From positions 12,456 to 76,455 of the forward strand of contig CBDCYO010000001.1 of NCBI GenBank assembly GCA_965224255.1: a stretch of DNA of 64,000 bases. Direction: 5' to 3'. The position numbers and the translations under genes are program-made. Origin of the DNA: Dehalococcoidia bacterium. Its GTDB lineage: Bacteria; Chloroflexota; Dehalococcoidia; UBA6926. Below, in pieces: positions 17,601 to 38,587 of this stretch (its first letter is position 1; the number at the start of each line of letters is the position of its first letter). A model generated the notes under the pieces. The model did no database searches, was not told where the DNA came from, and saw only the letters and a program-made list of their open reading frames with translations.

Positions 17601-18088
17601 AACTCGTTGAGATGCTCGCGCGTAATCCGTTGCGCATGGACTACCAACAAAAATATGAGGAGATCGTCGCGGCCTACAACCGCGAGAAAGATCGTGTCAC
17701 CATAGAGGAAACGTTCCGGCGACTAACCGAGCTGATGGTCGAACTCGACGCCGAACAGAGTCGTGCAGTACAGGAAGGCCTCGACGAGGATGAGTTGGCC
17801 CTGTTCGATCTGCTGAAGAAAGACGGTTTGAATAGGTCCGACCGCGAAAAAGTCAAACAGTCAAGCCGGGAACTCCTCAAGGCAATCAAAAAACGACTGG
17901 CCGAACTAGACCGATTCTGGGAGAAAGAGCAGACCAAGGCGGAAATGGAGGTATTCATCCTCGACGCAGTCTTCGTTAAACTCCCGACCTCGGCCTTTTC
18001 CTCAGAGGAAAAGCGGACAGTTGCCTCCGATGTTTATAACCACGTCTGGCAGCAGGCCCTCAGCCGCCAGTTTGCGATCGCGGCGTGA
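14675..18088 (+). CDS. hsdR: Type I restriction enzyme endonuclease/helicase subunit HsdR
   Basis: 1137 aa; TQGSGKS (Walker A), VISDEAHRTQ (DEAH), FTGTPLF motifs; RBS GAGGGAG upstream of ATG 14675. Confidence 0.95.
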   Translation: MAVTSINSEDRLVQVTFAQHLEQALGWDSIYAWNQETFGPDGTLGRANTKEAVLTRDVRAALERLNPELPASAIEDTVRKLAAYDVSRSMVQHNRDFYRLIRGGVPVEYRDDKGSLRTARARVIDFDNAPGTNRFLAVRELKLTGFRTPNYNRRADLVCFVNGLPLVFIELKAVYKNIREAFENNLSDYMDERVIAHAFHHNAFLIVSNGDRARFGSITSQWEHFAEWKRLDEADTGSLEAEVLLNGMLAHDRLLDIVENFILFDDSKPGATRKVIARNHQVLGVNRAVESVRRQEELKLEFPPVRRLEHRVVELPLESRIPTEHELMQGRARAASPFIPAGPIEIIERAHPDLGRLGVFWHTQGSGKSYSMAFFAEKVRRKVQGNFTFLLMTDRNDLDSQIYRTFIGCGIADNQTPRAASGDDLEKRLQENPSYLFSLIHKFNKDVDPKQPYSERDDIIVISDEAHRTQAGRLARNMRNALPNASFIGFTGTPLFTQDELTRRIFGDYVSRYDFKRSEEDGATVKLVYENRGEMLGVARKDLNDLIAAKIEEAELDPDQEALLDKLLGQDYEVITADARLEKIAADFVEHCATRWQSGKSMLVCIDKITCARMLQLIVPRWKVKVFAVRAAAGAKRAEAKAANDESVRDALAEQAQELAAQADWLDETIVEIIISEAQNEVSDFKKWGFDIIPHRARIKQGFETPDGRRVDVEDAFKDPDHPFRVAIVCAMWLTGFDVECLSTLYIDKPMKAHSLMQAIARANRVYPGKDFGLIVDYNGMLRSLREALAQYALGDDGGDDGPIVEPIEERLQALIEAIEATEAHLRGLGFDPRSLIGSTGFARIKGLKDAVEAVYTSDEDKRRFEVLARQVFIRFKALLTEPSAFAYAERHDNIEAIYKKLAERRDTADVTELLKELHRIVNEAIRTQEPGEDQAEGLTFDLSQIDMETLRDEFAKKVRRKATTLQDIRDIVEQKLVEMLARNPLRMDYQQKYEEIVAAYNREKDRVTIEETFRRLTELMVELDAEQSRAVQEGLDEDELALFDLLKKDGLNRSDREKVKQSSRELLKAIKKRLAELDRFWEKEQTKAEMEVFILDAVFVKLPTSAFSSEEKRTVASDVYNHVWQQALSRQFAIAA

Positions 18089-19630: not shown

Positions 19631-20731
19631 CTACGGTCGCGAGGGCTGAGGCCTTGGTGAAGCGAATTGTTTGCGCACCATCTCTGCGTGAAGGTCCGTA
19701 GCTAAAGCGACGACTCCATCAGCAGTCGCAAGCAATTCGCCGGATCCGTCATACCCGTCTGATAGCATTGCCCGCGCCTCACGCAAGCTCTCCATGGCCG
19801 CGACCAAGGATTCCTCGAATCGATTAGTCGGGGGACGACTCGCCGCAAACGCCGCTTGGAGGTTGCTCGTATTGCGTAGACTGGCTACCGCCGACCGATT
19901 TCCCAGTACTGCGTCCAATTGACGGAGGTGTGGGTTCTGGGATCGTATGATGGGACGTGCATCCTTGCGCTTACTACCGTATAACCATAGGCATAGTTCA
20001 CCAAGTTCCGTTCGTTTTTCCGAAGGGACGGGCTCCGGGTCCTCCGCTTCCTCTGAGGTCAGTCCGATATACGAACTGATGCCAGGATAATCTAGTCCCG
20101 TATAAAGATGGGAGAATGAAAAATGTCGGTGCCACCGATCTTCGCGGCGAAAAACCTCCCAATCCTCAGCTTGTTCGATAACTTTCAGCCCACGAAAAAG
20201 CCTCTGGACCGTGTTGTGGTTGTCGCCAATCTGCTGCGCGATCTGTACCAAAGAGACGTTGAAGGTTTGGTTGACCGAAGCGACATATCGTGCTTTTGCG
20301 TAGCTGCCCCACTTAGCTGGACCGTTGACGTGTTTGAAACCGAGAAACCTCCAAGTGTCTTCTCGCGTATCTATCAGACAAGGTAGGCGGTTCAGCCCAT
20401 CAAGTAGGTCGGCCGCAATCGTCGGGATATTGGCTTTCACCTGCCGGGCGACGGCGGGGTCCCTGATTGCCTTGACTGCTGCCAGCCGACGGTTTCCTTC
20501 GATAACGACAAATTTGTCTGACTCCTCCACCACGATTAGAGGCTCGTGTCGGAAGAACCCGCTGGCCGTGATGGACATCACTAATTCCTGCACATCCTCC
20601 GTTTCCCACAGTATCTTGATGATGTCCATTTCATTTTGGATCGGCGAGTCGAAAAATTCGGCAAGCCTCGGATTCTTCACATCGAACTCGAGTTGGTCGA
20701 CGTCGATGTCGGTAACCGTTGGCGTAGTCAT
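19631..20731 (-). CDS. ParB/Srx-like nuclease-domain protein with HTH-like region
   Basis: HEPLIVVEESDKFVVIEGNRRLAAVKAI matches the ParB GxRR box. ATG overlaps the Dam stop (ATGA at ~20728-20731). Confidence 0.75.
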   Translation of the reverse strand: MTTPTVTDIDVDQLEFDVKNPRLAEFFDSPIQNEMDIIKILWETEDVQELVMSITASGFFRHEPLIVVEESDKFVVIEGNRRLAAVKAIRDPAVARQVKANIPTIAADLLDGLNRLPCLIDTREDTWRFLGFKHVNGPAKWGSYAKARYVASVNQTFNVSLVQIAQQIGDNHNTVQRLFRGLKVIEQAEDWEVFRREDRWHRHFSFSHLYTGLDYPGISSYIGLTSEEAEDPEPVPSEKRTELGELCLWLYGSKRKDARPIIRSQNPHLRQLDAVLGNRSAVASLRNTSNLQAAFAASRPPTNRFEESLVAAMESLREARAMLSDGYDGSGELLATADGVVALATDLHAEMVRKQFASPRPQPSRP

Positions 20732-21630
20732 GGCGTTTGCACCATCTGTTGGTTGGGTATTGGCTCGGGACCGCAGGATGAAACCCATGCGGACGGGCGT
20801 TGCACGTAAGGTGGCGTAATCAGCAGTTCGAACGTTTTCTTCTTCTGTTGCAAGCTATATTGCAAACCAATATCCGAGATATTGCAGTCGGCGTAGAGCC
20901 CTCTGATTAGTTGGGAGTCATCGTATGAGGCTACCCATTGGACCGATTGCTGTCGCCGCAAGTACCGAGCGAGTTTGCCGTGGTCTTTTGTGTCGTAATC
21001 GTTCAAATACAGGCGACTCCCCTTCGAGACGTAAGGTGGATCCAAATACACGAAGACCTGCTTGCGGCGGTTACCTTTAGGAAGGTGGGTAGTCAAGAAT
21101 CGCAACGCGTCGTCATTGGTAACCTGGATTTGGTCTCGCTGTTCAGCAACTCGGACGATTCGTTCAGCGAGGGCTTGCCGGTTGAAACGCGCATCCATGC
21201 GCCACGTTCCAGTCTGGGAATATCCGCCTATCGGTGCCGAACCGAGCAGGATGCCAGAGCGATTGCACCGGTTCAAATAAAACGTGGCAAATCCGAGATC
21301 GAACGTGCTATGCAGGGTTGGTTGTAGGCAGATTTCTTTTTGCTTTCGCCATTGGTTTACGTTCAATTCAACCGACATGATCGCATCGGCAAATCGTTCA
21401 TGTTCGTTGAGAATAGCCTGCCAGAACGCGTAAATCTTCGGGTCGAGATCGTTCAGCAGTAACTCAGAAACCACGCCCTCGCGCAAAAGCCGAAGGGCTG
21501 CTCCGGCTCCGCCTGCAAACGGTTCGAAGTATCTACATTCCCTGAGACCGTTGGTTTCTATGAAACAACCCAATAGACCGGCCAGCGAACCCTTACCTCC
21601 CGGATAACGTAAAGGGCTATACGTTCTCAT
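20728..21630 (-). CDS. Dam-like (D12 class) N6-adenine DNA methyltransferase
   Basis: N-terminal LRYPGGK, FEPFAGGAG and DPPY motifs diagnostic of the Dam/MethyltransfD12 family. Confidence 0.9.
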   Translation of the reverse strand: MRTYSPLRYPGGKGSLAGLLGCFIETNGLRECRYFEPFAGGAGAALRLLREGVVSELLLNDLDPKIYAFWQAILNEHERFADAIMSVELNVNQWRKQKEICLQPTLHSTFDLGFATFYLNRCNRSGILLGSAPIGGYSQTGTWRMDARFNRQALAERIVRVAEQRDQIQVTNDDALRFLTTHLPKGNRRKQVFVYLDPPYVSKGSRLYLNDYDTKDHGKLARYLRRQQSVQWVASYDDSQLIRGLYADCNISDIGLQYSLQQKKKTFELLITPPYVQRPSAWVSSCGPEPIPNQQMVQTP

Positions 21631-25949: not shown

Positions 25950-26034
25950 CTATTTTGCAAAAACCGCCGAAAGGGGGAAGTTCTGTACAAGGTGCTGGGC
26001 AATCTGAAAAGGAGACGACTTGCAGGAGGTAGTT

Positions 26035-26946
26035 ATGGACGAGGATCTGAAAAATTTGACAAAGCTCCCGTGGGCGTCAATTCCGGAGTTGGCCGGCTTC
26101 CGCTATATAAACCGGACCACCGTGTCCCGCAAAGAGGAGGAGTGGAACCAGGATGGACTGGTCGTTGTCAAACACGGTGGCTTTTTGGTGCGGCCGCGGG
26201 CCAGGTTGTTGAGCACCACGGGAGGGCTGATCCAGGTTTTTCCTCAGCAGCATGATCACCTGGGACCCGATCATGACTATCACGAGCATGACCCCTTCCA
26301 CCCGGAATGGGAAGACCATGAACATCCCGGTTTTTTCAACGGTTATAACGGAGCTCTCGACCTCTGGGAGAAGTTGGAGCGGATCGAGATGTGGTACCCC
26401 GCGGCCCCGGAGGTGCTGCTGGGCGAGGGCGCTGCCTGGACCCACGACGGCAAAGCCCGGAAGATCTTGTCCTGGCGGTGGCTGCGGAACACCAGGTTCG
26501 TAGAGGCAGTCGCGACCTACGAGGACGACTATCGGATCTTCTTCGGCCACATCGGCCGGTCGGTTACAGAGAGGATGCTGGAGTACCGGTGGACAAACCG
26601 CTTTCCCGACGTTCACGACGGCCGGCTCCACACGCTGGTCATGCGGTCCAGCGGCGAACGGGAGGAACGCCTGCGAAACGAGCTGGCCGACCCGCCGGAC
26701 CCTGACTTGGACTACAACCCCAAGCCTTCGGCCTACGTCATTTCCACGCCCGATATCCGCGGGGTCGAGCTGGCCTGTAGGATCCTGCCCAGAGACGCGG
26801 GATATCTCTACCTCGTGGGACCGCCGCCCGGTCAACGCTTCTACCTGGGCCGGGCGGAGCCCGCCCCTCATGACGACGTCGCCGACGCATTCGAAACCCT
26901 CAATTTCGGAGACCGGCTGCCGCAGGACCTGTGCCCTGCAGAATAA
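26035..26946 (+). CDS. hypothetical protein
   Basis: CAGGAGG RBS 6 nt before ATG 26035; long protein-like ORF (track 26020-26946). Confidence 0.55.
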   Translation: MDEDLKNLTKLPWASIPELAGFRYINRTTVSRKEEEWNQDGLVVVKHGGFLVRPRARLLSTTGGLIQVFPQQHDHLGPDHDYHEHDPFHPEWEDHEHPGFFNGYNGALDLWEKLERIEMWYPAAPEVLLGEGAAWTHDGKARKILSWRWLRNTRFVEAVATYEDDYRIFFGHIGRSVTERMLEYRWTNRFPDVHDGRLHTLVMRSSGEREERLRNELADPPDPDLDYNPKPSAYVISTPDIRGVELACRILPRDAGYLYLVGPPPGQRFYLGRAEPAPHDDVADAFETLNFGDRLPQDLCPAE

Positions 26947-26969
26947 CGACTGACGAGAAGGAGGATGGC

Positions 26970-28259
26970 ATGGTGATCAGGGGACGTGGCGCGTTCCGTC
27001 CGGAGCTGCCGGCAGAGATGAAAAGGCTCGAGCGGCTCAACGGGGTGTTGCCCTACAAGGTCTTTGAAAATATCGAGCACTATTCGGGCCTGAGCGACCC
27101 GCAGTTGGCGGACCTGCTGGACGTGAGGCCCAGCAGGCTCGCCGATGCTCTGGCTCAGCTCAACCAGGGAGAGGACGAGGAGAAGATCGCAGCCGCGGTG
27201 GCCTGGTTCAACGAGGCCACGGGGGAGGATGAAAATGCTGATAGGAACACCATCGGAGATCTGCTGAGAGAGGCCAACCGTGGCGAACTATTGGTGCGGA
27301 TACCCGTGTACACCGGACCGGAGGGCGAACTGACTTCCAATGTGGCCCTGGTACCCCTGCTCGAAGACGGGACCTTGCCAGCACCCCGGTTTCACATGAA
27401 TTACGTTTCCGTGGAAGGGACCATCATCATCCAGCACAGGGATGCGACCTCCCTCGCCGCCATACGCCGCAGGGCATATGAGGATGTCCGCAAGGACCAC
27501 AATGGATACGCGCCTCAGCTGACCCACACCCACCAGCAGAACGGATGCCTCGTGGCGATGTCACTGCACGAATACCCCGTTTCTGCCGGGTACCGGGGTG
27601 CTCTGTATCTGCCGGGCGGGCAGCAGCTCGTGCCGGACGCCCGGCTGACAGCCCACGTCTACCAAAGCGATCTCCCCACGGAGTTCATGCGCGGGGGCCA
27701 TTGGATCCGGTGGGGCGAACAAGGCAGGGCAGAGCGGGAGGAGATCCGGCGGCAGCTGGAACGGTACGTACCCGAGGCACGCCGGCTCGGCGGCCTGTCC
27801 GTTGCCTGCCTGTGCGAGAACGAGGCAGTGATCGAGGTGGTCAGGGATGAAGCTGCGAACATCGCCCGGGACTACGACGTGGCGCTCCATGCCCTAGCGG
27901 TACTGAAGGACACCGTCACCGTGGGTGATGCGGCTCCGGGTAGGCCGGACTTTATCCGTCCGATCTACGTGGTCAAGCAGTGGTATGTCGAATACGAACG
28001 CTCGGCAACCACTCCCGTCGCCATCCGGAACAAGCTGATGCCCTATTTCCGTGCGGTGCGTCGCGGCTACGACTGCCCTGTGATCGTTATCTGCGAGACC
28101 CAGAGAGCTGCACAGATCTTCCGGCAGCAACACGGGAACCTGCAGCGGGAGCTGGGTGTTTCGTTCCTGCTCATCACGTCCACCTACGCCCAGGTGACGG
28201 CCGGGGACCAGTTTGATACCTGCTGGGACCTAGACGGACATCCCATCAGGTTGATTTAA
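26970..28259 (+). CDS. hypothetical protein, translationally coupled to 26035-26946
   Basis: GAGAAGGAGGA RBS overlapping upstream stop; ATG 26970 in frame with ORF 26931-28259. Confidence 0.55.
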   Translation: MVIRGRGAFRPELPAEMKRLERLNGVLPYKVFENIEHYSGLSDPQLADLLDVRPSRLADALAQLNQGEDEEKIAAAVAWFNEATGEDENADRNTIGDLLREANRGELLVRIPVYTGPEGELTSNVALVPLLEDGTLPAPRFHMNYVSVEGTIIIQHRDATSLAAIRRRAYEDVRKDHNGYAPQLTHTHQQNGCLVAMSLHEYPVSAGYRGALYLPGGQQLVPDARLTAHVYQSDLPTEFMRGGHWIRWGEQGRAEREEIRRQLERYVPEARRLGGLSVACLCENEAVIEVVRDEAANIARDYDVALHALAVLKDTVTVGDAAPGRPDFIRPIYVVKQWYVEYERSATTPVAIRNKLMPYFRAVRRGYDCPVIVICETQRAAQIFRQQHGNLQRELGVSFLLITSTYAQVTAGDQFDTCWDLDGHPIRLI

Positions 28260-28579
28260 CCACCTGGAAACTCGCGTGCATCCCAAGCACTCATTTTGTC
28301 CCCCTGGGGGGTAGTTTCAGGGTCTGAGACCCCACCCCGTGAGGGCATGCACGGCAATTTCCAAGTTTGCGAGCCCCTTGATCAGCGGAAATTCGCGTGC
28401 GGGGCGGCCATCCCTCGCCTGAACGCCACGCGGTGGGGAGGCTAATATAGGGATCACGAGTTTTCGTGGCTGAATACGGGGGGCTAGCGTGCATTTCCCG
28501 TGCGACCGGTTTCGCGCCGCATTCCAGCCTCCGGGGCCGGGCTATGGGCCGTGTCCTGCAGCGGGTTGAGGTCACCGGT

Positions 28580-29043
28580 TGGGGAACATGCCGAGGCTTG
28601 TCAATGAGTGTGAGGACACCTTGGCAGTCACCGTAGACGGCCAGGGGAATGCCGAATAGTCGGATGAATCCCTCCATCAGCAGAAGGTAGCCCCGAGTGT
28701 CCTCCTCGGGTCTGAAGAGAGCATTGGCCACGTTGCCGGTGGCGTTGTCCCGCGACAACCATAATTGCCGATTCCTGTTGCCTCATTCAGGAATGTTACC
28801 GAAACTTTAGCACTTGGGGTCCGCCCCAACCAGCGCTAATTCCGGCATTGCAGGGAGTTCCGCCATGGGCTCACCAGCGGCGGCGTAGACTAGCTCTTTG
28901 CTCATGATGCCGCGCCACTGCCGCACTCTGCGCTGCAGCGTGCGCAGGTGAGCCCGGTTGAAACGATCTGGTTCAGCCTCTTGCAATCGGCCCAGCAATA
29001 CCACCGCACTGGCGTCCGGGTCTTCCTGCAACCAGCCCAGCAC
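28580..29043 (-). pseudogene. possible IS remnant: a C-terminal-like fragment (28807-29043) and an N-terminal-like fragment (28580-28758) either side of terminal piece Z (~28785-28830)
   Basis: ...LQRRVRQWRG tail-like fragment; MSRDNATGNVANALFRPEEDTRGYLLLMEGFIRLF fragment. Family not assignable. Confidence 0.25.
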
Positions 29044-29684: not shown

Positions 29685-29971
29685 GTTCCGCGTAAGCATC
29701 CCTGACGATCCAGCTTGGCCGCGCTGGCCGCCAGCAGCTGCTCTCAAAAGCAACCGTTTTGCTGAAGCAATACGTGGCGGTCGCCAGATCATGCCGGTCA
29801 GCCTGAGCCTGATTGGTAAAATCGGCGTCAATTAACTCCTGCTGCTTTCTCGCACGGACGTGTCCGCGATGATGACTCTGCTGCCCGGTGGGTCAATTCC
29901 ATATCGGTGCTGCCGCACATGACAACGTCGGCAGTCACACAGGGTGATCGTAATAATACATTGCGTAAATA

Positions 29972-30003
29972 GTATGCCTTGCGCCGATGCACAACTGAGG
30001 CGA
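29972..30003 (+). promoter_or_regulatory. candidate promoter of the AbiEi-like gene (TTGCGC-17 bp-GATAAT), predicting a near-leaderless transcript
   Basis: -10 GATAAT ends about 10 nt before ATG 30014; AT-rich island in GC-rich context. Confidence 0.3.
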
Positions 30004-30013
30004 TAATAGCATT

Positions 30014-31087
30014 ATGAGAGCACCATCAGGACAACAGGCAGTGCGGCTGGCCGAGGACAGGCTGGCTCAGATATTCAGCGCAATCGGCCAGGCTGATCAC
30101 TTCGACATCGAGCTGCACGCCAAAGACGGCGACGAACGCAGTCAATCGGATGCTGTCATCACCATTGCCGGCCGCAGCTTCGTGCTGGAATGCAAGAGTT
30201 CCGGTTCACTCGGCCCGGTAGCAATGGCAGTTAATCGACTGGCCCAAGTCCCGTCCAACTCCCCTGATCCGGTGATCCCGTTGCTGGCGGTCCCCCACAT
30301 GGGCGCGTCAGCACGGGCTTACTGTGAGCAGAACGGCGTGGCCTGGCTGGACCTCTCCGGCAACGGGAGAATCGTGGCGCCTGGGATGTTCTACCAAGAG
30401 GTGGGACACCCCAACCGATTCCCCCGGTCCGGCCGACCGGAAAGCGCCTTCGGTCCCAAGGGTTCCCGTATAACCAGGCAGCTTCTCAAGGATCCGGAAA
30501 CGCCGGTCCGTCAGCGCGACCTGGCTTCCAGCACCGGTTTGAACGAAGGCCACGTCAGCCGGATCGTCAACAAACTGGTGGATATGGATCTCGTGCAGCG
30601 CGGCGATGACGGCATCAGCGTTACTGACCAAAACCTTCTGCTTGACGCTTGGCGTGAGGAGTATCGCTTCGACCGGCATACCGTCATACGCGGGTATGTG
30701 GCGGCTAGGTCGGGCGACGCGTTGGCCCGTTCACTAGCTCAGAAACTGGACGAGTTCGAGATGTCTTATGCCGTAACCGGATTGCCAGCCGCCTGGTTGT
30801 GGACCCGGTACGCCGGGTTCCGGCTCGTCACCGCTTATCTCGCCGATTTCCCATCGGCTGGATTGATGACGGATCTGGGTTTTCGGGAAGAGCCACGCGG
30901 CGCCAACACGTGGCTGGTGATCCCCAACGACGAGGGGGTATTCCATGGAGCCAGCCAGGTAGACGGCGTACGATGCGTCCATCCGGTGCAGGCGTATCTG
31001 GACCTGAAGGACCATCCGGAGCGGTCACAGGAAGCTGCCGAAGAACTGAGGAGCCGGTTGCTCGCAGGAAGTCCCGTTGACCGCTAA
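30014..31087 (+). CDS. AbiEi-like Type IV TA antitoxin/regulator with an extra N-terminal PD-(D/E)xK-like domain
   Basis: Residues about 40-65 FDIELHAKDGDERSQSDAVITIAGRSFVLECKS (D...ExK). Central wHTH VRQRDLASSTGLNEGHVSRIVNKLVDMDLV. AbiEi-like C-terminal domain. Confidence 0.55.
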   Translation: MRAPSGQQAVRLAEDRLAQIFSAIGQADHFDIELHAKDGDERSQSDAVITIAGRSFVLECKSSGSLGPVAMAVNRLAQVPSNSPDPVIPLLAVPHMGASARAYCEQNGVAWLDLSGNGRIVAPGMFYQEVGHPNRFPRSGRPESAFGPKGSRITRQLLKDPETPVRQRDLASSTGLNEGHVSRIVNKLVDMDLVQRGDDGISVTDQNLLLDAWREEYRFDRHTVIRGYVAARSGDALARSLAQKLDEFEMSYAVTGLPAAWLWTRYAGFRLVTAYLADFPSAGLMTDLGFREEPRGANTWLVIPNDEGVFHGASQVDGVRCVHPVQAYLDLKDHPERSQEAAEELRSRLLAGSPVDR

Positions 31088-31919
31088 ACCGACCACATGG
31101 GACGGATATTCCAACGACCAGCTGGACATCGTCACCCGCGCCTGTCTCTACGTTTTCACCAAGCTGGGTGATCTGTGCGACGATGTTGTGGTGGTAGGCG
31201 GCTTGGTGCCTTACCTCCTGGTGGACCAGGATGACCCGCCGACATTGCTGGGGACCCACTCCGGCACCATGGACCTCGACCTGGGGCTGGCGCTCGCGAT
31301 CCTGGATGAACAGCGATATCAGGACTTGAGCGCACGGTTGCGCAGCGCGGGATTTTCTCCAGACGTGAACAGCGCCGGCAACACAACCCTGCAACGCTGG
31401 GTCACCAACTCGGGACCGCACGTAACCATAGACTTCCTGATTCCTCCGCAGGCTGCGAACGGCCAGCCAGGCAGACTTTTCCACATCGAAAACGACTTTG
31501 CCGCGATCATCACTGAGGGACTTGGCCTGGCCTTTCGCGACCGGCGATCGGTGACGTTATCGGGCTACACGCTTGCAGACGAGCGCGCCACCAGAGAGAT
31601 TCCGGTGTGCGGTCCGGGCGCTTTCACCGTGCTCAAGGCTCTGGCCTTTCGGAACCGGGGCGAAAACAAGGACGCCTACGACCTGCATTACGTGCTGAGC
31701 GGTCTGGGCATCAACGAAGTCGCCCACTGCCTGCGGTCGCTCTTGCCAGATGCCCGGGTCAAGAAAACGTTGACCATCATCGGGAACGAGTTCACCGTGC
31801 GCGACGCCACGGGACCGAGGCGGGTGGCTCAGTTCCTGACCAACGGTCCGGACGATGATATTCAGGCGGACGTCGTCGGCAATGCGGTTGCGCTGCTAAA
31901 CGCGATGGGAATGACTTAA
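31077..31919 (+). CDS. AbiEii/DUF1814-family nucleotidyltransferase toxin
   Basis: TTG start after AGGAAG RBS, overlapping upstream stop. VVVGGLVPYLL...GTMDLDL (GG...D.D) and KDAYDLHYVL signature blocks. Confidence 0.75.
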   Translation: MTAKPTTWDGYSNDQLDIVTRACLYVFTKLGDLCDDVVVVGGLVPYLLVDQDDPPTLLGTHSGTMDLDLGLALAILDEQRYQDLSARLRSAGFSPDVNSAGNTTLQRWVTNSGPHVTIDFLIPPQAANGQPGRLFHIENDFAAIITEGLGLAFRDRRSVTLSGYTLADERATREIPVCGPGAFTVLKALAFRNRGENKDAYDLHYVLSGLGINEVAHCLRSLLPDARVKKTLTIIGNEFTVRDATGPRRVAQFLTNGPDDDIQADVVGNAVALLNAMGMT

Positions 31920-32031
31920 GACTGCGGACCGCCTTCAGGCGGCCGTAGAGTTTCGACGAAGCAACATACCGCTTCGAAGACAAAGGTTTGCCAAGACCCG
32001 CCCGCAAGTCAAGAATGGAGAAGGGACAGCC

Positions 32032-33801
32032 GTGCTTCAGATTGCATCCGGCAAATTGTTCCGGAAGAAACCCGGCCAGCGCAATGAGTTGCGAGGCGTA
32101 CTGTACACGAACCTGCGGGTGTACGACAGAGTGATTGAGACTTCCGCAGGCCGTTTACTGTCCACGAGCAACCTGCACGACTCGAAAACGTTGGTGTACG
32201 AGTTAGCCGAACTCATCGAGGATGATCCCGGCCCAGGAGTGATCGCATCACACGGTATTGATCCGTACCTGAGCGACTTTGCAACCGTCGTATCCTTCGT
32301 CCTCAACGTGACCTGCACGCCGGACCACGACCTAACCCTTAGGTTGCTCAGCGGACGCCCCAGTCCGTCAGTTCAGTTCCCTCCTAACAAACTGGTCGCT
32401 CGGGCGTTCGATGACATGGTCTGGTGCCAGCCTCGGGACGAAATCCAGCTGTTCGAGATGGTTGCTCAACTCATCAGCCTGAAGCGCGAGAGTTTCCTGG
32501 CGGCCATGCGGTCCATACGCTCCTACGTCACCGGATTGCATAGGCTCGCCGATGACCATGAGCTGGCTTACACACTGCTGGTAGTAGCCATTGAGTCGCT
32601 GGCGCCGGAATTCGACGACTCCAATCCACAGTGGTCAGACTACGACCAGCGGAAGCGTCTTGCCATCGATAAAGCCCTGGTCGGTGCGGATGAGGGTTTG
32701 GCTACGCGAGTCAGAGAAGCTTTGCTGGCAACCGAGCACGTTGCGTTGGGCCGGCGCTTCCGTGAGTTCGCTCTGGAACACTTGGAGCCGTCCTACTTCC
32801 GGAAGGAAGCCCAAGGTTTGGTCAATCCCGTGGGATATTCCGACCTGGAAGTCGCGTTGCGGCAGGCATACAACTTGCGCTCCGACTATGTTCACGAACT
32901 AGCAGAACTACCCGCGATACTGAAGCTGCCGGGTTTCGGGGACACGGCTCCACTGGGTCGCCAGGCAGTGCTGACATTTCAAGGACTAGCTCGTCTGGCT
33001 CGCCATGTGATCGCGACATTCATCCAGAGACAACCCAAGGTTCACCGGGAAGCGTACGATTACCGGCTCGAACTGCCCGGCGTGGCAAGAGTCGAGCTGG
33101 AACCTCGATACTGGGTCGGTCGCGCTGACAACCTGCACAACAACGCGGGACGTCGACGCTTGGAAGGTTTCCTGAAACAGGCCACGGCGTGTCTGCTCCA
33201 AGGAGAAGGAGCTTCCGTTACTAACCTGAGGGACGTGCTGTTGGAAGTCGAGAGAATGCTCGCCCAGATGAGCGCTCACCAACGGCGGCCGTTCATCGCG
33301 CTCTACATCCTATTCAACACGATGGCATTGGGAAACGAGAAGATGGATCAATTTGAGGAGCTCACGAAGCACTACTGGGAGGAGTTTGCCCAGCCAGCGA
33401 TAGAGTCCATGCTGACGTTTCTGGCGTTGGGTATCGACCCCGAGTGGTCTCTCACCGAGCATCGCGAGGTCCACGACACTTACTTCCGGGAGAAGCACCA
33501 CAAGAACGGCCTGAGAGTTCCTCCCGCTCTGGAAGCAGGGCTCTGCCTGACTCTCGCCGAGCATTACCGCCTGGCAGGCGACGTTGTGCAGGCACGCGCA
33601 CTCATCACATCAGCTGCGGAGAATCATCCTGGCCACGCTCCTCTGCTCGACCTTGAGCAGAACTTCGACCCTGCCCAGGAGATCAACTGGATGAATACGG
33701 TCAGACCACCTCGGGTTGATGAAGATGACAAAGACCCTGCGGGAGGAACCGGCGACCGAGATGCGAAAGGGGCAACATCGGAGGTGTTCGGAAAACCATA
33801 A
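32032..33801 (+). CDS. large hypothetical protein with HEPN-like Rx4H motif
   Basis: GTG start after GGAGAAGGGA RBS. ALRQAYNLRSDYVHELAEL contains R-x4-H. No other recognisable domain. Confidence 0.5.
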   Translation: MLQIASGKLFRKKPGQRNELRGVLYTNLRVYDRVIETSAGRLLSTSNLHDSKTLVYELAELIEDDPGPGVIASHGIDPYLSDFATVVSFVLNVTCTPDHDLTLRLLSGRPSPSVQFPPNKLVARAFDDMVWCQPRDEIQLFEMVAQLISLKRESFLAAMRSIRSYVTGLHRLADDHELAYTLLVVAIESLAPEFDDSNPQWSDYDQRKRLAIDKALVGADEGLATRVREALLATEHVALGRRFREFALEHLEPSYFRKEAQGLVNPVGYSDLEVALRQAYNLRSDYVHELAELPAILKLPGFGDTAPLGRQAVLTFQGLARLARHVIATFIQRQPKVHREAYDYRLELPGVARVELEPRYWVGRADNLHNNAGRRRLEGFLKQATACLLQGEGASVTNLRDVLLEVERMLAQMSAHQRRPFIALYILFNTMALGNEKMDQFEELTKHYWEEFAQPAIESMLTFLALGIDPEWSLTEHREVHDTYFREKHHKNGLRVPPALEAGLCLTLAEHYRLAGDVVQARALITSAAENHPGHAPLLDLEQNFDPAQEINWMNTVRPPRVDEDDKDPAGGTGDRDAKGATSEVFGKP

Positions 33802-33815
33802 CCATTACCCAGCGC

Positions 33816-35336
33816 ATGGGATTTCCAGATGAAAAACAATGGTCAATAAGCCAGGAGGACAATTTGAACGAACCGCGTGTACCGGAAGCTATTGATCTGC
33901 AGCAGAAATGGCGACTCGGCGAGCAGTTGGGAGCCGGGGGATTTGCCGACGTCTATCGGGCCCGGTCGGGGAACGGAACATCGGCAGTGGTCAAGCTCGT
34001 CCGCAAGCTGCCCGGTACCCATCGCGAACTCCTGTTTGTGGATTTGGACGACGTGCCCAATGTCGTGCCCATCATCGACTGGGGTGAACACGACGACTAT
34101 TGGGTGCTGGTGATGCCGGAAGCAGAGAAGTCGCTCCGCGACCGCCTCATTGAAGTCGAAGGTCGGCTTGATACGTCCGAAGCCGTCCCGATACTCATTG
34201 ACGTCGCCCAGGCGCTTGTAGCCATGGAAAGCCGCGTCGTGCACCGGGACATCAAGCCGGAGAACATCCTCCTGCTGGATGGCAGCTGGCGCCTTGCGGA
34301 CTTCGGTATCGCCCGTTACGCCGAGGCCACCACCGCGCCGGACACGCTGAAGTACTCGATGTCCCGCGCCTACGCCGCGCCTGAGCAGTGGCGAGGCGAG
34401 AGGGCCAGCAGCGCTACGGACGTGTACGCTTTGGGGGTTGTGGCATATGAACTCCTGACGGGACAGCTTCCGTTCCAGGGAGTCGACCTGCGGCAACAGC
34501 ACTTGGAAGAGACCCCAGAGACCATCTCAGGCATTCCCGACAGGCTGCGATCCCTGGTGAACGAATGCTTGTACAAGGGCCCCGAAGCACGCCCACGGCC
34601 TCAGAATCTTCTGGCGCGGTTGCAGGGAAGTATGCAAGCGGCCTCCGCGGCAGCATCTCGCCTGCAACAGGCCAACGCTCTGGCCGTACAGAGAAAAGCG
34701 GAGGATGAGCGTCAACAGTCTGCAGCCCAAGTCGAAGCGGAGCGGCGGAGAACGCTTCGGGCCGCAGCCGAACAGTCGTTGGAAACCACTCTGGCCCTGC
34801 TCCATCAGCAGATTGCGGACAACGCGCCAGCAGTCCGTGTAGCAGGTTCCCCTCCCCGAAGCTGGGCTTTGAACGACGCCACTTTGCGCATGGGCACGAT
34901 CACGCTAGCTGTTCCGAAACCCGACGAACGTATGCAATTGCCGTTCGACGTAGTGGCCCATACATCGATCAGCCTCTCCGTTCCCCGAGACCGATACGGG
35001 TACACAGGCCGTTCCCACTCGTTGTGGTATTGCGACGCCCAGCACGAGGGAGGGTTCCGGTGGTACGAAACGGCCTTCATGATCACCTTTGGTGGGTCCG
35101 AAAGGCGGGGCTTTGCACCCTTCGATATGCACCCGGGCGATCCCGACGCAATGCTAGCCCTGTCGCCGGTGATGCATACTCACCAGGTGGCTTGGCCATT
35201 CACTCCGATTGACCAGGGGGACGAGGACGCTTTCATCGAACAGTGGATGGGGTGGATCGGCGAGGCCGCACAAAGCCAGATGCGCCGTCCGAGCACGCTA
35301 CCGGAAGTAAACCCCCAAGGTTCGTGGCGACGATGA
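33816..35336 (+). CDS. Hanks-type Ser/Thr protein kinase with ~230-aa C-terminal domain of unknown function
   Basis: LGAGGFADVY...AVVK, HRDIKPENILL, DFG, APE motifs. Alternative TTG start 33876 after GGAGGA. Confidence 0.85.
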   Translation: MGFPDEKQWSISQEDNLNEPRVPEAIDLQQKWRLGEQLGAGGFADVYRARSGNGTSAVVKLVRKLPGTHRELLFVDLDDVPNVVPIIDWGEHDDYWVLVMPEAEKSLRDRLIEVEGRLDTSEAVPILIDVAQALVAMESRVVHRDIKPENILLLDGSWRLADFGIARYAEATTAPDTLKYSMSRAYAAPEQWRGERASSATDVYALGVVAYELLTGQLPFQGVDLRQQHLEETPETISGIPDRLRSLVNECLYKGPEARPRPQNLLARLQGSMQAASAAASRLQQANALAVQRKAEDERQQSAAQVEAERRRTLRAAAEQSLETTLALLHQQIADNAPAVRVAGSPPRSWALNDATLRMGTITLAVPKPDERMQLPFDVVAHTSISLSVPRDRYGYTGRSHSLWYCDAQHEGGFRWYETAFMITFGGSERRGFAPFDMHPGDPDAMLALSPVMHTHQVAWPFTPIDQGDEDAFIEQWMGWIGEAAQSQMRRPSTLPEVNPQGSWRR

Positions 35337-36850: not shown

Positions 36851-38587
36851 TCAGGACGGCACTTGCCCCAAATGCACGTCCACGCCCATCAGGCGCAGCA
36901 TCACCCGCCCCGTCACCGGCGCGGCCTCCCGCGTGGAGCCCTTCTCCCTGGGCTCGAACCGCTGGCGGGCCAGCGCCTCAATGTCCCTCTGGCACAGTTC
37001 TCTCCAACGGCGGGCCTCATCCCAGATGTCGCCAAAACGCTGGTGCACCGGACCACCGGCCGTGAGCACCAGCAGCCGCTCGGCTCGGGAGAAGGCCACG
37101 TAATGCTGGCGCATGTGGTCGAAGGCCGCAATGAGCCGGGCGGGCTCTGCGTCAGACCGGAGATAGTACGGCCCCAACGACCTGCCCACCGGATCCACGT
37201 TGGGATTGTGTAAATCAAGAGACCCCACGATCACCACCGGCCACTGCCTTCCCTTGGACTGGTGAATGGTCGTCACGGTCACCGCTCCTTGGGAGCGTCT
37301 CCGGCCTCGTTCCCCGCGACCGGAGCCAGCCGGCACGCAGCGCGCGGGAATGCCCGCATCATTCAGGGCGTCCAGATAGGGTCCGGACACATCATCCTGT
37401 ACGCTGTGCAACAGCAACGCCACCTGGTGATAACCCTCAATCACTCGGCGGCTTTTCAGAAACCGCAGCAGATCAGCCAGCTGCCTTCCCTCGTCGTCGG
37501 GGTCGCGCCCCTCGACGGCGATCACCGCCGGGTAATCGTCGTACCCGCACGGGTCGTGGGGAACTATGGTCTTGGCATGGCGGAAGGGCGCGCCTTCGGG
37601 ATCGGGGTTGGACCAGTCCGCCGACCACATCCACCCGTCATACGCCCTGACGATGTCGGGGTGGCTGCGGTAGTTGACGGTGAGCTCCACCACCCGGCAG
37701 TCGTGGAAGCGCTCGCCGAACCCGAGAATATTGCGCACCGTGGCGCCGCGGAAACGGTACAGGGACTGGTCCTCGTCGCCGACCACGCACAGGTTGCCGT
37801 GCGCTGCGGACAGCCGCGTCAGGATGCGTTCCTGCACGTGGCTGGTGTCCTGACACTCATCACACATCAGGTACCGTATGCCACCGGAGATTGCATCGGC
37901 GACGTCATCGTCATCCAGCAGCAGGTCTGCCCAGGCCTGCAGGTGGGCGAAGTCGGCGGCGTTCTCATCCAGCAGCAGGCGCGCGTAGCGCCGGTAGCAG
38001 CGGCCCACGGCGGCAATGAAGGAACTGCGGGAACGGGTCAGGTTCCGGGGATTGATCACCTCATCGCAGATCCGCTCGAAGTACTTGAGCGCGCCCTTCA
38101 CCACCGCCGGGGGACGTCGCCAGCCCCGGCCCTCCAGATCCAACATGTCGGGGCCGAAAACGTCGTCGAACCGCCGATGCAGCAGGTTCGCCTGCTGATC
38201 GTTGTCCAGCAGGCGGAAACCGCGCCTCAAACCCACCCGCTCGGGGTGTTCGGCCAGGAGCCGTCCGCACAGGCTGTGGATGGTGCACACGCGCGTGCGG
38301 CCGGTGCTGACTCCGTAATCCGCCGCGCTGGCCACGGCGTCAAACCTCTGGCGCAGCTCACCGGCCGCGTCCGCGTTGTAGGTGCACAGCAGCAACTCCT
38401 CCGGCCGGGCCAGCCCCCGCAATAGGATGTTGGCTCCCCGGAGCGCCAGCGTCAGGGTCTTGCCGGCGCCGGGACCGGCGACGCCCAGCGTGGGGCCGTC
38501 CAGGCTGCTGATCAGCTCCAGCTGTCCGGCGTCCAGCTGCGGGTAGAGGGACAAAATGACGGGCGCTACGCCCGCGGTGGTTTTCAT
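36851..38587 (-). CDS. UvrD/Rep-family SF1 DNA helicase (compact, 578 aa)
   Basis: GPGAGKT (I), TYNADAAGEL (Ia), CDECQDTS (II), VVGDEDQSLYRFRGA (III), NYRSHPDIV (IV), TIHQSKGRQWPVVIV (V), YVAFSRAERLLVLT (VI). Confidence 0.9.
   Translation of the reverse strand: MKTTAGVAPVILSLYPQLDAGQLELISSLDGPTLGVAGPGAGKTLTLALRGANILLRGLARPEELLLCTYNADAAGELRQRFDAVASAADYGVSTGRTRVCTIHSLCGRLLAEHPERVGLRRGFRLLDNDQQANLLHRRFDDVFGPDMLDLEGRGWRRPPAVVKGALKYFERICDEVINPRNLTRSRSSFIAAVGRCYRRYARLLLDENAADFAHLQAWADLLLDDDDVADAISGGIRYLMCDECQDTSHVQERILTRLSAAHGNLCVVGDEDQSLYRFRGATVRNILGFGERFHDCRVVELTVNYRSHPDIVRAYDGWMWSADWSNPDPEGAPFRHAKTIVPHDPCGYDDYPAVIAVEGRDPDDEGRQLADLLRFLKSRRVIEGYHQVALLLHSVQDDVSGPYLDALNDAGIPARCVPAGSGRGERGRRRSQGAVTVTTIHQSKGRQWPVVIVGSLDLHNPNVDPVGRSLGPYYLRSDAEPARLIAAFDHMRQHYVAFSRAERLLVLTAGGPVHQRFGDIWDEARRWRELCQRDIEALARQRFEPREKGSTREAAPVTGRVMLRLMGVDVHLGQVPS

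Follow-up and report, generated by a model that had tools for sequence, protein, structure and literature searches.

Two co-oriented genes, A and B, located within a window of 64,000 nucleotides (the whole stretch of DNA analyzed), probably constitute a two-gene toxin–antitoxin (TA) or abortive-infection module of the COG4861 (AbiEi_2, PF09952)–DUF1814 branch, in which the PD-(D/E)xK domain of protein A is most likely structural. This assignment comes from sequence comparisons and structure models. The pair is an ordinary member of a widespread, already catalogued AbiE-type TA family, and no new annotation category is needed for it.

Organization and Assignment of the Locus

Both open reading frames and the overlapping TTG start of gene B were found as the initial annotation had described them (Table 1). 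Based on the ORF list and the sequence, the start of B overlaps the final codons and the stop codon of the upstream gene A by 11 nt. The proposal of an AbiE-type pair was likewise borne out: protein A carries a wHTH and a C-terminal AbiEi_2 domain, and protein B is a DUF1814-type nucleotidyltransferase (NTase). The motifs quoted for the two proteins are present, namely DAVITIAGRSFVLECKS (D46...E59-x-K61) in A and GG41-42...D66-L-D68-L and K198-DAYDLHYVL in B; the core spacing in A, given as D-x13-ExK, is D-x12-ExK by our count.

Table 1. Features of the A–B locus; coordinates are positions in the window.
Feature	Position	Strand	Remarks
Operator-like upstream half-site TTGCGTAAA	29961..29969	+	family consensus TTGccTAAA, 46–54 nt before ATG
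Imperfect palindrome CTTGCGCcgaTGCACAAC	29978..29995	+	left arm holds −35-like TTGCGC (29979–29984)
−10 hexamer GATAAT	30002..30007	+	17 nt after TTGCGC, 6 nt before ATG
Gene A	30014..31087	+	ATG start, 357 aa
Predicted PD-(D/E)xK (restriction-endonuclease-like) fold domain, A residues 1–130	30014..30403	+	AF2 models, Foldseek, weak sequence matches
Linker, A residues 131–147	30404..30454	+	G131, N134, F136, G140-R141-P142, F146
wHTH region of A	30455..30625	+	Pfam, PDB profiles, Foldseek
AbiEi_2 (PF09952/DUF2186) domain, A residues 205–357 and stop	30626..31087	+	Pfam, Foldseek
Shine-Dalgarno-like AGGAAG	31066..31071	+	5 nt before TTG of B, within the end of gene A
Gene B (DUF1814/AbiEii-type nucleotidyltransferase)	31077..31919	+	TTG start, 280 aa
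GC-rich hairpin directly 3′ of B stop	31922..31948	+	RNA fold −22.3 kcal/mol, z = −4.4

The COG4861–DUF1814 pairing had already been described in 2014 (PMC3985639). PF09952 is equivalent to COG4861 (PMC7251935), and MenA2/MenT2 of M. tuberculosis (Rv0837c/Rv0836c) is placed in the same branch (PMC3968373, PMC7450476). Homologues of A of about 350 aa that have the N-domain number in the thousands in Chloroflexota, Proteobacteria and Actinomycetota, and 419 loci were found among species-representative genomes. The N-domain alone matches 396 cluster representatives, mostly at the N-terminus of 340–360-aa proteins, and it is included in all 82 plasmid matches. A homologue of B lies directly downstream of A in 70 of the 79 genome loci. 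In RefSeq, relatives are named "type IV toxin-antitoxin system AbiEi family antitoxin" beside "AbiEii/AbiGii toxin family protein"; pairs annotated in this way occur in Bosea and Klebsiella, an identical layout is seen in Streptomyces, and A is 33% identical to an annotated family member.

The A–B pair sits in a defense-island-like stretch of a Chloroflexota-type genome, where genes for a type I R subunit, a Dam-like methylase, a Ser/Thr kinase and a UvrD helicase are found nearby. The hairpin that follows B has no U-tract and is absent from the output of the consensus terminator scan, and none of 200 shuffled sequences was equally stable; it likely marks the end of the operon. A 589-aa gene farther downstream and the Ser/Thr kinase were considered as parts of the same system and rejected, because none but the two closest loci (L001 and L003) have them beside the pair, and because this strong hairpin stands between them and B.

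Protein B Is a Divergent DUF1814 Nucleotidyltransferase

Motifs I–II (hG[GS]...DhD), III (KLxAaxxR in COG4849) and IV (+DxxD), as defined in PMC3985639 (see also PMC11375011), correspond in B to G41-G42 (motif I), T64-x-D66-L-D68 (motif II), K187-ALAFRN-R194 (motif III) and K198-D-A-Y-D202 (motif IV). As is known for DUF1814, the G-to-D spacing exceeds that of the pol-beta consensus. Residues G41, D66, D68, K187, R194, K198, D199 and D202 are invariant in 27 B homologues, and G42 is conserved in at least 90% of them. T64, also invariant, lies two residues before the first catalytic Asp (T64-M-D66) and is a putative phospho-acceptor; T39-x-D41 of MenT1 and S78 of MenT3 are reported as phospho-acceptors in PMC11375011.

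The PF08843 model scores B at 20.8 bits (E 4e-4), just under the cutoff of 22.5. Several B homologues at ~80% identity carry PF08843, and B aligns along its whole length, at 27% identity (E 7e-23), with a RefSeq AbiEii/AbiGii protein scoring above the cutoff. Thus, B is assigned as a divergent DUF1814/AbiEii member by transitive homology and not by the model threshold. A PDB search by sequence gave no match to B, including no MenT or AbiEii entry, and NCBIfam yielded nothing useful for A or B. PADLOC returned marginal matches only (PDC-M05A, PDC-M21B and AbiEii at E 0.022).

Architecture of Protein A

Based on Pfam, HTH_Crp_2, MarR_2 and MarR models match A at residues 155–209, so that a winged helix precedes the AbiEi_2 domain. 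PDB profiles of MarR regulators (E 4.5e-5) and Foldseek matches to MarR/IclR agree with this. PF09952 matches residues 203–350 over model positions 2–142 of 143 with 26.8 bits (cutoff 21), and it is also matched by 55 of 76 diverse relatives. Foldseek matched the C-terminal domain to LnuA (4fo1; TM 0.52, 153 columns) and ANT(2″)-Ia (5cfs/5kqj). The AbiEi_2 fold is therefore predicted from the model to resemble small pol-beta-type nucleotidyltransferases, without the DxD carboxylates, and may represent a degenerate version of such a fold. By analogy with the C-terminal domain of AbiEi (bioRxiv 10.64898/2026.01.19.700257), it is presumed to be the toxin-neutralizing part. An origin of this domain as a paralogue of toxin B was also considered and rejected, since profile–profile comparison was negative (probability 0.2%).

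The AlphaFold model of A (pLDDT 93.6, pTM 0.90) gives the N-domain an alpha-beta-beta-beta-alpha-beta core. In two AF2 models its elements are H6–23, (E30–34), E47–51, E54–60, H66–77, E87–93, H98–106 and E110–113. The pLDDT of the domain is ~80 in the first model and mostly 80–98 in the second (66 for residues 31–40), and the 31–50 loop is the sole lower-pLDDT part of residues 10–145. D46 starts beta2 and E59-x-K61 lies on beta3, which are the canonical positions. The best PDB match found by Foldseek was NucS (2vld), with modest E-values of 4e-4 and 3e-3, and EndoMS, AF1548, Can2, Cdn1 and VC1899 were matched as well. The N-terminal ~130 aa are thus predicted to adopt a PD-(D/E)xK fold, as had been proposed from the sequence. 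Sequence matches are weaker. Pfam gave no match for the N-domain of this A itself. Among the N-domains of 35 relatives it gave weak matches to Mrr_cat in three (best E 5.6e-4) and PDDEXK_9 in three, and single weak ones to SfsA, HSDR_N, NOV_C and Hjc. In a PDB profile search the scores were marginal, with E 0.22 for Hjc (1gef), where D and ExK align, and E 0.64 for NucS. The weak matches to Mrr_cat, PDDEXK_9, Hjc and NucS nevertheless agree in pointing to this fold.

It should be noted that this domain is not an "extra" on AbiEi, as was first thought, because the same three-domain build of ~350 aa is found throughout the AbiEi_2/COG4861 family. Nor is the domain order a new variant: of more than 2280 homologues, nearly all of the best 120 listed have a length of 343–366 aa and at least 94% query coverage. 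In COG4861 antitoxins, the ~200 residues that lie before PF09952 form a domain of PD-(D/E)xK fold, followed by a conserved linker and then a wHTH; about half of the family keeps the triad. No description of a PD-(D/E)xK domain in COG4861 antitoxins was found in Pfam or in the literature searched on DUF2186, COG4861, AbiEi_2 or PF09952, and the literature searched for AbiEi together with PDDEXK, REase or NucS likewise gave no description of such a domain.

It was also considered whether the N-terminal region arises from the choice of start codon, the true start lying near the HTH. Automated calls do differ, as most public annotations of the identical protein begin at a GTG at codon 10 (348 aa) and one cluster member has 357 aa, but the difference amounts to nine codons only. 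Residues 1–9 (M-R/Q-x-P...) and the ATG of A are conserved in 60 of the 79 related loci, so the extension is genuine. Furthermore, residues 10–145 are conserved in thousands of homologues, have a pLDDT mostly above 80–90 and include the motif that is conserved best in A, which leaves a start artefact with practically no probability.

Function of the N-Terminal Domain and Alternative Readings

The most conserved motif of protein A is W-x-D-L-S-G-N: W111-x-D113-L-S-G-N117 is nearly invariant, and D113 and N117 are present in all 76 family representatives. The linker also consists of near-invariant columns, without secondary structure and with pLDDT above 90 in the second AF2 model. The full D-E-K triad occurs in only 39 of these 76 representatives and is wholly lost in several (AAS, TAA, VAA, NVM, HNA and IAQ), which nevertheless retain the whole architecture. 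Hence, catalysis appears dispensable for the function of the family, nuclease activity is probably not the core function of the N-domain, and the part played by the domain is most likely structural rather than that of an obligatory nuclease. Within the clade of A itself (at least 59% identity), E59 is conserved in 40 of 40 sequences and D46 and K61 in at least 90%. Such conservation in homologues indicates that the motif is more than chance, and it weakens a non-catalytic reading of the N-domain. As the triad is intact here, residual nuclease activity is conceivable in this clade. The earlier idea that the domain couples DNA cleavage to the antitoxin is doubtful for the family.

An active nuclease in the N-domain would make A a bifunctional antitoxin/effector, in which control of the NTase toxin is tied to the cutting of phage or host DNA. 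The canonical placement of D46, E59 and K61, their conservation in the clade, the best structural matches being true nucleases (NucS/EndoMS, Can2, Cdn1) and the location among defense genes all fit this reading; we nevertheless regard it as unlikely, given the erosion of the triad across the family, the strongest conservation lying in W-x-D-L-S-G-N and the linker, and the lack of any conserved acidic residue seen on helix alpha1 of the domain. It is also conceivable, if quite unlikely, that the pair is not a growth-arresting TA system and that the NTase of the COG4861 branch is a harmless enzyme of modification or signalling, controlled by a dedicated regulator of three domains that is perhaps a transcription factor sensing a ligand or DNA. 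MenT2, the one studied member of the branch, proved non-toxic in both M. smegmatis and E. coli (PMC7450476) and has no detectable activity (PMC7450476, PMC11375011); B scores just too low for the AbiEii model of Pfam and escapes the AbiE models of PADLOC; and in several loci B is lost or truncated while A is intact. However, orphan antitoxin genes beside decayed toxin genes are equally typical of TA decay. B retains all the catalytic and family-specific motifs that mark the toxic DUF1814 enzymes, the regulatory T-x-D among them, and the tight A–B coupling, the multiple copies per genome, the copies on plasmids and ICEs and the defense-island context are typical of TA/Abi modules.

Rather improbable is a broader proposal, in which the PD-(D/E)xK domain of COG4861 antitoxins, including MenA2, is a working nuclease or a DNA-sensing module in the D-E-K clades such as this one, and the AbiEi_2 C-terminal domain may itself be an inactivated NTase of the pol-beta type whose partner is the toxin. 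If it were true, A would be a second effector or an infection sensor that releases the NTase, and not a mere antitoxin. Returning to the preferred reading of a TA or abortive-infection module with a structural N-domain, its three points (the N-domain build, the promoter and the fold of the C-terminal domain) leave the current view of AbiE/MenAT function unchanged.

Predicted Promoter and Operator of the Pair

The promoter of gene A is very probably leaderless and operator-controlled, and transcription is predicted to start at or beside the A of the ATG. The proposal of a leaderless, autoregulated promoter is well supported by 58 unique ATG-anchored upstream regions, which share −35 and −10 elements within palindromes and have TATAAA or TATAAT at a fixed 6–7 nt before the ATG (family consensus TATAAA, 7 nt before), without a Shine-Dalgarno sequence: SD-like 4-mers precede 5 of 58 A starts vs. 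35 of 50 homologous B starts, in the latter 4–13 nt upstream. The GATAAT hexamer had been said to end about 10 nt before the ATG; the shorter distance measured here fits a leaderless start better. TTGCGC-17-GATAAT agrees with the sigma-70 consensus at 8 of 12 positions (3 of 6 for the −35 alone), and it was not listed by the generic promoter scan. A GAGG found 13 nt before the ATG of A could be a weak SD. All 61 aligned A starts are ATG, a figure biased by selection through alignment to Met1. The AT-rich island noted at this promoter does exist, with 45% GC at 29930–30013 vs. 59.7% in the window, but it is only modest.

The TTGccTAAA half-site shows position-specific conservation over the 58 regions, the neighboring positions having ~0 bits. 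The family consensus of the palindrome is ACTTGCgcAaaTgcGCAAg, 20–38 nt before the ATG, and in the distant loci L072–L077 the half-sites change jointly to TTGAC...GTCA. In proteobacterial homologues, too, palindromes lie at or across the ATG, and the geometry is TTGACA-17-CATTTT-6-ATG. It is presumed from these patterns that the palindrome is the operator for the wHTH of A. An inverted-repeat search of this promoter reported none, since the copy here is degenerate (arm match 5/7), and the palindrome becomes visible only in the 58-locus comparison. The very well conserved promoter/operator with its leaderless geometry offers ready targets for EMSA and reporter assays.

Proposed Mechanism

We suggest the following scheme for the pair. 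The operon would be transcribed as a leaderless mRNA, and A would bind the TTGC...GCAA repeats via its wHTH and repress its own promoter. B would be translated by coupling, with the SD inside the end of A and the TTG overlapping the A stop codon. Free B would act by nucleotide addition at the 3′ ends of tRNA, blocking translation. To neutralize B, the C-terminal domain of A may bind it and/or trigger auto-phosphorylation of T64; antitoxin binding and/or toxin auto-phosphorylation are shown for MenA1/MenT1, MenA3/MenT3 and AbiEi/AbiEii (for the T-x-D of MenT1 and MenT3, see PMC11375011). The PD-(D/E)xK domain would serve as a structural module, providing dimerization or a non-catalytic DNA contact that seats the repressor on palindromic operators. 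As MenT2 is non-toxic, the toxicity of B and the antitoxicity of A are extrapolated from the COG5340 branch and MenAT1.

Comparison with Known Systems

The closest likeness is to MenA2–MenT2, where a large COG4861/PF09952 antitoxin, far exceeding the toxin in size, is likewise encoded ahead of a DUF1814 NTase (PMC3968373, PMC7450476 and PMC3985639); the likeness of MenA2 to A is one of membership through the PF09952–COG4861 equivalence. In contrast to MenT2, which was non-toxic in tests, B keeps all motifs, and the present pair comes from a Chloroflexota-type genome.

The AbiEi–AbiEii pairs of S. agalactiae and Lactococcus, MenA3/MenT3 and MenA4/MenT4 (COG5340–COG2253) are also bicistronic, and in them too a wHTH autorepressor/antitoxin precedes the DUF1814 NTase, repression by A being predicted. 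They share promoter inverted repeats, toxin motifs I–IV and, at position −2 from the first catalytic Asp, a Ser/Thr phospho-acceptor that is putative in B (PMC3985639, PMC11375011, bioRxiv 10.64898/2026.01.19.700257). Unlike in A, the wHTH of COG5340 antitoxins is N-terminal and no PD-(D/E)xK domain is present, and their C-terminal domain has no detectable sequence relation to AbiEi_2 (PMC3985639). To the classical AbiEi (COG5340; PF17194/PF13338/PF11459), A shows neither a sequence nor a fold match: the Pfam AbiEi_1, AbiEi_3 and AbiEi_4 models did not match A, PDB sequence and profile searches with A gave no AbiEi, MenA or Rv2827c entry, and AbiEi (6Y8Q) and Rv2827c were absent among the top 50 Foldseek matches listed for A.

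The N-domain resembles the C-terminal nuclease domain of NucS/EndoMS as well as Hjc and Mrr in its predicted alpha-beta-beta-beta-alpha-beta core and in the placement of D...E-x-K. It differs from them in that the identity is only 16–19%, the triad is not conserved throughout the family of A, and the domain is fused to a repressor instead of a repair or restriction module. To our knowledge, W-x-D-L-S-G-N has no counterpart in the NucS/EndoMS, Hjc or Mrr enzymes. An AbiEi-type wHTH and a PD-(D/E)xK-type domain are combined in one protein in the AbiEi_4 wHTH–DUF559 fusions as well, where the nuclease-like part is C-terminal; compared with A, these fusions have the reversed domain order, lack AbiEi_2 and carry a domain of a different nuclease family.

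Gene Organization and Family Assignment

Both reading frames proposed in the initial annotation, and the peptide strings quoted from them, were found in the sequence. Gene A, encoding the presumed antitoxin, and gene B, encoding the presumed toxin, overlap by 11 nt. An AGGAAG lies 5 nt 5′ of the TTG of B, and a stable hairpin (−22.3 kcal/mol, z = −4.4) is located 3′ of the B stop codon. Based on Pfam annotation, residues 203–350 of A match AbiEi_2 (PF09952; 26.8 bits vs. a gathering score of 21) and residues 155–209 match MarR/Crp-type winged helices, while residues 1–150 have no Pfam match. PF09952 corresponds to COG4861, the AbiEi_2 antitoxin branch (PMC7251935), COG4861–DUF1814 gene pairing was described in 2014 (PMC3985639), and such pairs include Rv0837c–Rv0836c (MenA2–MenT2) of M. 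tuberculosis.

Protein B scored just under the Pfam cutoff for AbiEii (PF08843; E = 4e-4, 20.8 bits vs. 22.5), and it carries all four DUF1814 nucleotidyltransferase motifs in the definition of Dy et al. (2014, PMC3985639): G41-G42 (I), D66-L-D68 (II), K187-ALAFRN-R194 in the COG4849 form KLxAaxxR (III) and K198-DAY-D202 (IV). The motif residues are invariant among 27 homologues, save G42 (at least 90%). Also invariant is T64, two residues ahead of D66, at the position that is auto-phosphorylated in MenT1 (T39) and MenT3 (S78; PMC11375011). Over its full length, B is 27% identical (E = 7e-23) to a Bosea plasmid protein named nucleotidyl transferase AbiEii/AbiGii toxin family protein in RefSeq, which clears the PF08843 cutoff. 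The PF09952 match and winged helix of A, together with the four motifs of B, bear out the initial assignment to an AbiE-type pair.

Features of the A–B locus and its surroundings (positions in the window unless a related locus is named)
Feature	Position	Strand	Comment
Type I restriction R subunit	14675–18088	+	HSDR_N + SWI2_SNF2 + T1RH-like_C; upstream of A–B
ParB_N-like 385-aa ORF and adjoining Dam-like methylase	19631–21630	−	D12-class adenine methylase; upstream of A–B
308-aa ORF	26020–26946	+	No Pfam match
442-aa ORF	26931–28259	+	No Pfam match
Apparent transposase/integrase fragments	28291–29043	−	Short ORFs, translations read; just upstream of the A promoter
−35-like TTGCGC	29979–29984	+	17 nt upstream of GATAAT
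−10-like GATAAT	30002–30007	+	6 nt between hexamer end and ATG of A
Gene A	30014–31087	+	ATG start, 357 aa
AbiEi_2 C-terminal domain of A	30626–31084	+	Residues 205–357
Gene B	31077–31919	+	TTG start, 280 aa
589-aa protein and Ser/Thr kinase (506 aa)	32032–35336	+	Downstream of A–B; 15 nt between genes
UvrD-like helicase	36851–38587	−	Downstream of A–B
Counterparts of 589-aa/kinase genes, related locus L003	7993–11300
Counterpart of 589-aa gene, related locus L001	7997–9238

Genomic Neighborhood

Taken together, the R subunit, methylase, kinase and helicase make the region look like a defence island. The kinase strongly matches defence kinases (PADLOC mad6, 6.7e-53; PD-T4-6, 3.6e-45), and the 589-aa protein has no Pfam, NCBIfam or PADLOC match. 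Among 79 related loci, the 589-aa gene accompanies the A–B pair only in the two closest, L001 and L003, the latter being the only one that also has the kinase. The two genes were therefore not counted as part of the A–B system; they may form a separate two-gene defence unit. In L003, the kinase is 95% identical to that of the window, vs. only 70–81% for A, B and the 589-aa protein. The 442-aa ORF was found in none of the 79 loci. The transposase-like fragments, which gave no Pfam match at E 1e-3, may be an IS remnant.

Three-Domain Architecture of Protein A

The N-terminal region of A was initially described as an extra domain, in a domain order that may be a new variant. This did not hold: the three-domain build, shared by homologue lengths, N-domain matches and plasmid records, is standard in the family and represents neither a new fusion nor a new domain order. 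More than 2280 homologues of A were found. In the best 120 (identity at least 59%), nearly all are 343–366 aa long with query coverage of at least 94%, and a small number of shorter fragments and longer gene calls make up the remainder; NCBI names one of the 120 type IV toxin-antitoxin system AbiEi family antitoxin. Residues 1–145 alone gave 396 matches against 1.84 billion cluster representatives, and the full-length matches are mostly proteins of 340–360 aa, matched at their N-terminus. In a plasmid collection, 82 records carry an A homologue (Ralstonia, Streptomyces, Agrobacterium, a Klebsiella ICE and others), 61 of them with query coverage of at least 80%, and even the weakest of the listed matches begin within the N-domain, no later than residue 90. 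In RefSeq, the plasmid pairs carry the labels AbiEi family antitoxin and AbiEii/AbiGii toxin. Three domains are thus the usual architecture of COG4861/AbiEi_2 antitoxins, and RefSeq already annotates it so.

Searching a single genome for each species yielded 419 loci with an A homologue, several genomes having two copies. Most of the best 79 belong to Chloroflexota MAGs (Dehalococcoidia, Caldilineaceae), and some to Latescibacterota and other phyla. Among the isolate labels, several seem to resemble sponge-metagenome bin names. A B homologue directly follows A in 70 of the 79.

In about one-tenth of related loci (L012, L022, L029, L035, L038, L050, L051, L055, L078 and others), the toxin gene 3′ of an intact A gave only a partial or weak match, or, away from contig ends, no match (for example L002, L034, L057, L059 and L070). 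This suggests repeated decay of the toxin with retention of the regulator A.

Fold and Possible Function of the N-Terminal Domain

The N-domain of A was modelled with AlphaFold from close homologues (pLDDT about 80) and from 76 diverse sequences (whole-model mean pLDDT 93.6, pTM 0.90). Its elements (helix 6–23, strands 47–51 and 54–60, helix 66–77, strand 87–93, helix 98–106, strand 110–113) follow the order of a PD-(D/E)xK core in the model. D46 opens the second strand, with E59 and K61 both on the third; the spacing is D46-x12-E59-x-K61, one residue shorter than the D-x13-ExK first reported. In both Foldseek searches of the PDB, NucS (2vld) ranked first or second (E = 4e-4 and 3e-3, probability 1.00, about 105 columns), and the first search also gave EndoMS, AF1548, Cdn1, Can2 and VC1899, all PD-(D/E)xK proteins. 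Weak sequence matches point in the same direction: individual family members match Mrr_cat (best E = 5.6e-4), PDDEXK_9, SfsA, HSDR_N and Hjc, and in the PDB the N-domain profile matches Hjc (E = 0.22), in which the D and ExK line up, as well as NucS (E = 0.64). The fold proposed initially is therefore upheld by the modelled core and the NucS match. We found no statement of this N-terminal fold for COG4861 antitoxins in Pfam or in the literature searched; the assignment is a modest annotation insight and does not define a new kind of system.

An active nuclease in the clade of the window seems improbable, although the triad is kept there (E59 invariant; D46 and K61 at least 90%). Of 76 representatives (31–75% identity), 65 retain D46, 52 retain E59 and 50 retain K61, and only 39 have the full triad; several have no triad residue at all (AAS, TAA, VAA, NVM, HNA, IAQ) and a complete architecture. 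The best conserved N-domain residues lie outside the triad: P94 (74/76), W111 (74/76), D113 (76/76), S115 (72/76), G116 (75/76) and N117 (76/76). The linker that comes next is just as well conserved (G131, N134, G140-R141-P142, F146), and E59, P94, D113, G116 and N117 are identical in a four-way alignment with the Bosea, Klebsiella and Streptomyces homologues. From this pattern we infer a common function of the family that would not need nuclease chemistry; dimerisation, interdomain packing or non-catalytic DNA contact is the more likely role.

C-Terminal Domain

The AbiEi_2 C-terminal domain of A is modelled with pLDDT above 95. Small pol-beta-type nucleotidyltransferases are the only PDB matches, among those listed, covering residues ~205–357: LnuA (4fo1; TM 0.52 on the target, 153 columns, second model) and ANT(2″)-Ia (5cfs/5kqj), with weak Foldseek E-values of about 2e-2. 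A nearly invariant A253-x-T255-G256 occupies the place expected for the hG[GS] motif, and the strand after it has no acidic pair (DxD carboxylates), so that the domain, if the similarity is real, would be catalytically dead. The antitoxin may thus contain a dead nucleotidyltransferase fold. Profile–profile comparison of A and B (hhalign) found no relation. No structure of AbiEi of the classical branch, COG5340, was among the listed PDB matches of A, in agreement with the lack of sequence similarity between COG5340 and COG4861 reported in PMC3985639.

Start Codon and Predicted Promoter–Operator Region

Public calls of the exact A protein mostly start at a GTG at codon 10 (30041; 348 aa), and one of 16 cluster members has 357 aa. 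The ATG at 30014 is favoured by the conserved N-terminus M-R/Q-x-P (within residues 1–9) and the promoter geometry; the GTG calls look like a systematic start-site miscall tied to the leaderless arrangement.

The promoter region of A has a GC content of 45% vs. 59.7% for the window, and the GATAAT is closer to the ATG than the ~10 nt first estimated. Upstream regions of 58 unique loci (A proteins 49–74% identical to that of the window), anchored at the A start codon, gave the consensus nnnaacTTGccTAAAtAannnnACTTGCgcAaaTgcGCAAgntntggTATAAAanCAAntATG. Its −10 element, TATAAA, is separated from the ATG by 7 nt; the window and its nearest relatives have a TATAAT-like −10, with a separation of 6 nt. 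The TTGCgc 17 nt upstream of the −10 belongs to a palindrome, CTTGCGCAnnTGCGCAAG, as its left arm, and more TTGC/GCAA-type half-sites occur at −54 and just 5′ of the ATG. Information content reaches 1.2–1.7 bits at the −10, palindrome and half-site positions and is about 0 at those in between. All half-sites switch jointly to TTGAC/GTCAA in the distant loci L072–L077. The palindrome of the window is degenerate (5/7 arm match) and thus invisible without comparison. An SD-like 4-mer 4–13 nt upstream was found at 5 of 58 A starts vs. 35 of 50 B starts of the same loci. ATG is present at 61/61 aligned A starts, a figure biased by the choice of loci through alignment to Met1.

The Bosea and Klebsiella homologues have other palindromes (TTCAGCA...TGCTGAA) spanning the ATG, located at 2755–2850 of L080 (Bosea plasmid) and 2935–3000 of L081 (Klebsiella ICE), and the Bosea homologue has TTGACA-17-CATTTT-6-ATG. 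One proteobacterial palindrome is centred on the ATG itself, so its first codons (ATG CTG AA.) lie within the presumed operator.

The 58-locus consensus and the scarcity of SD-like motifs at A starts give strong comparative support to a leaderless transcript, which the initial annotation had suggested to be possibly autoregulated, and to predicted operator control by the winged helix of A. This predicted control parallels the autoregulation shown experimentally for AbiEi (PMC3985639).
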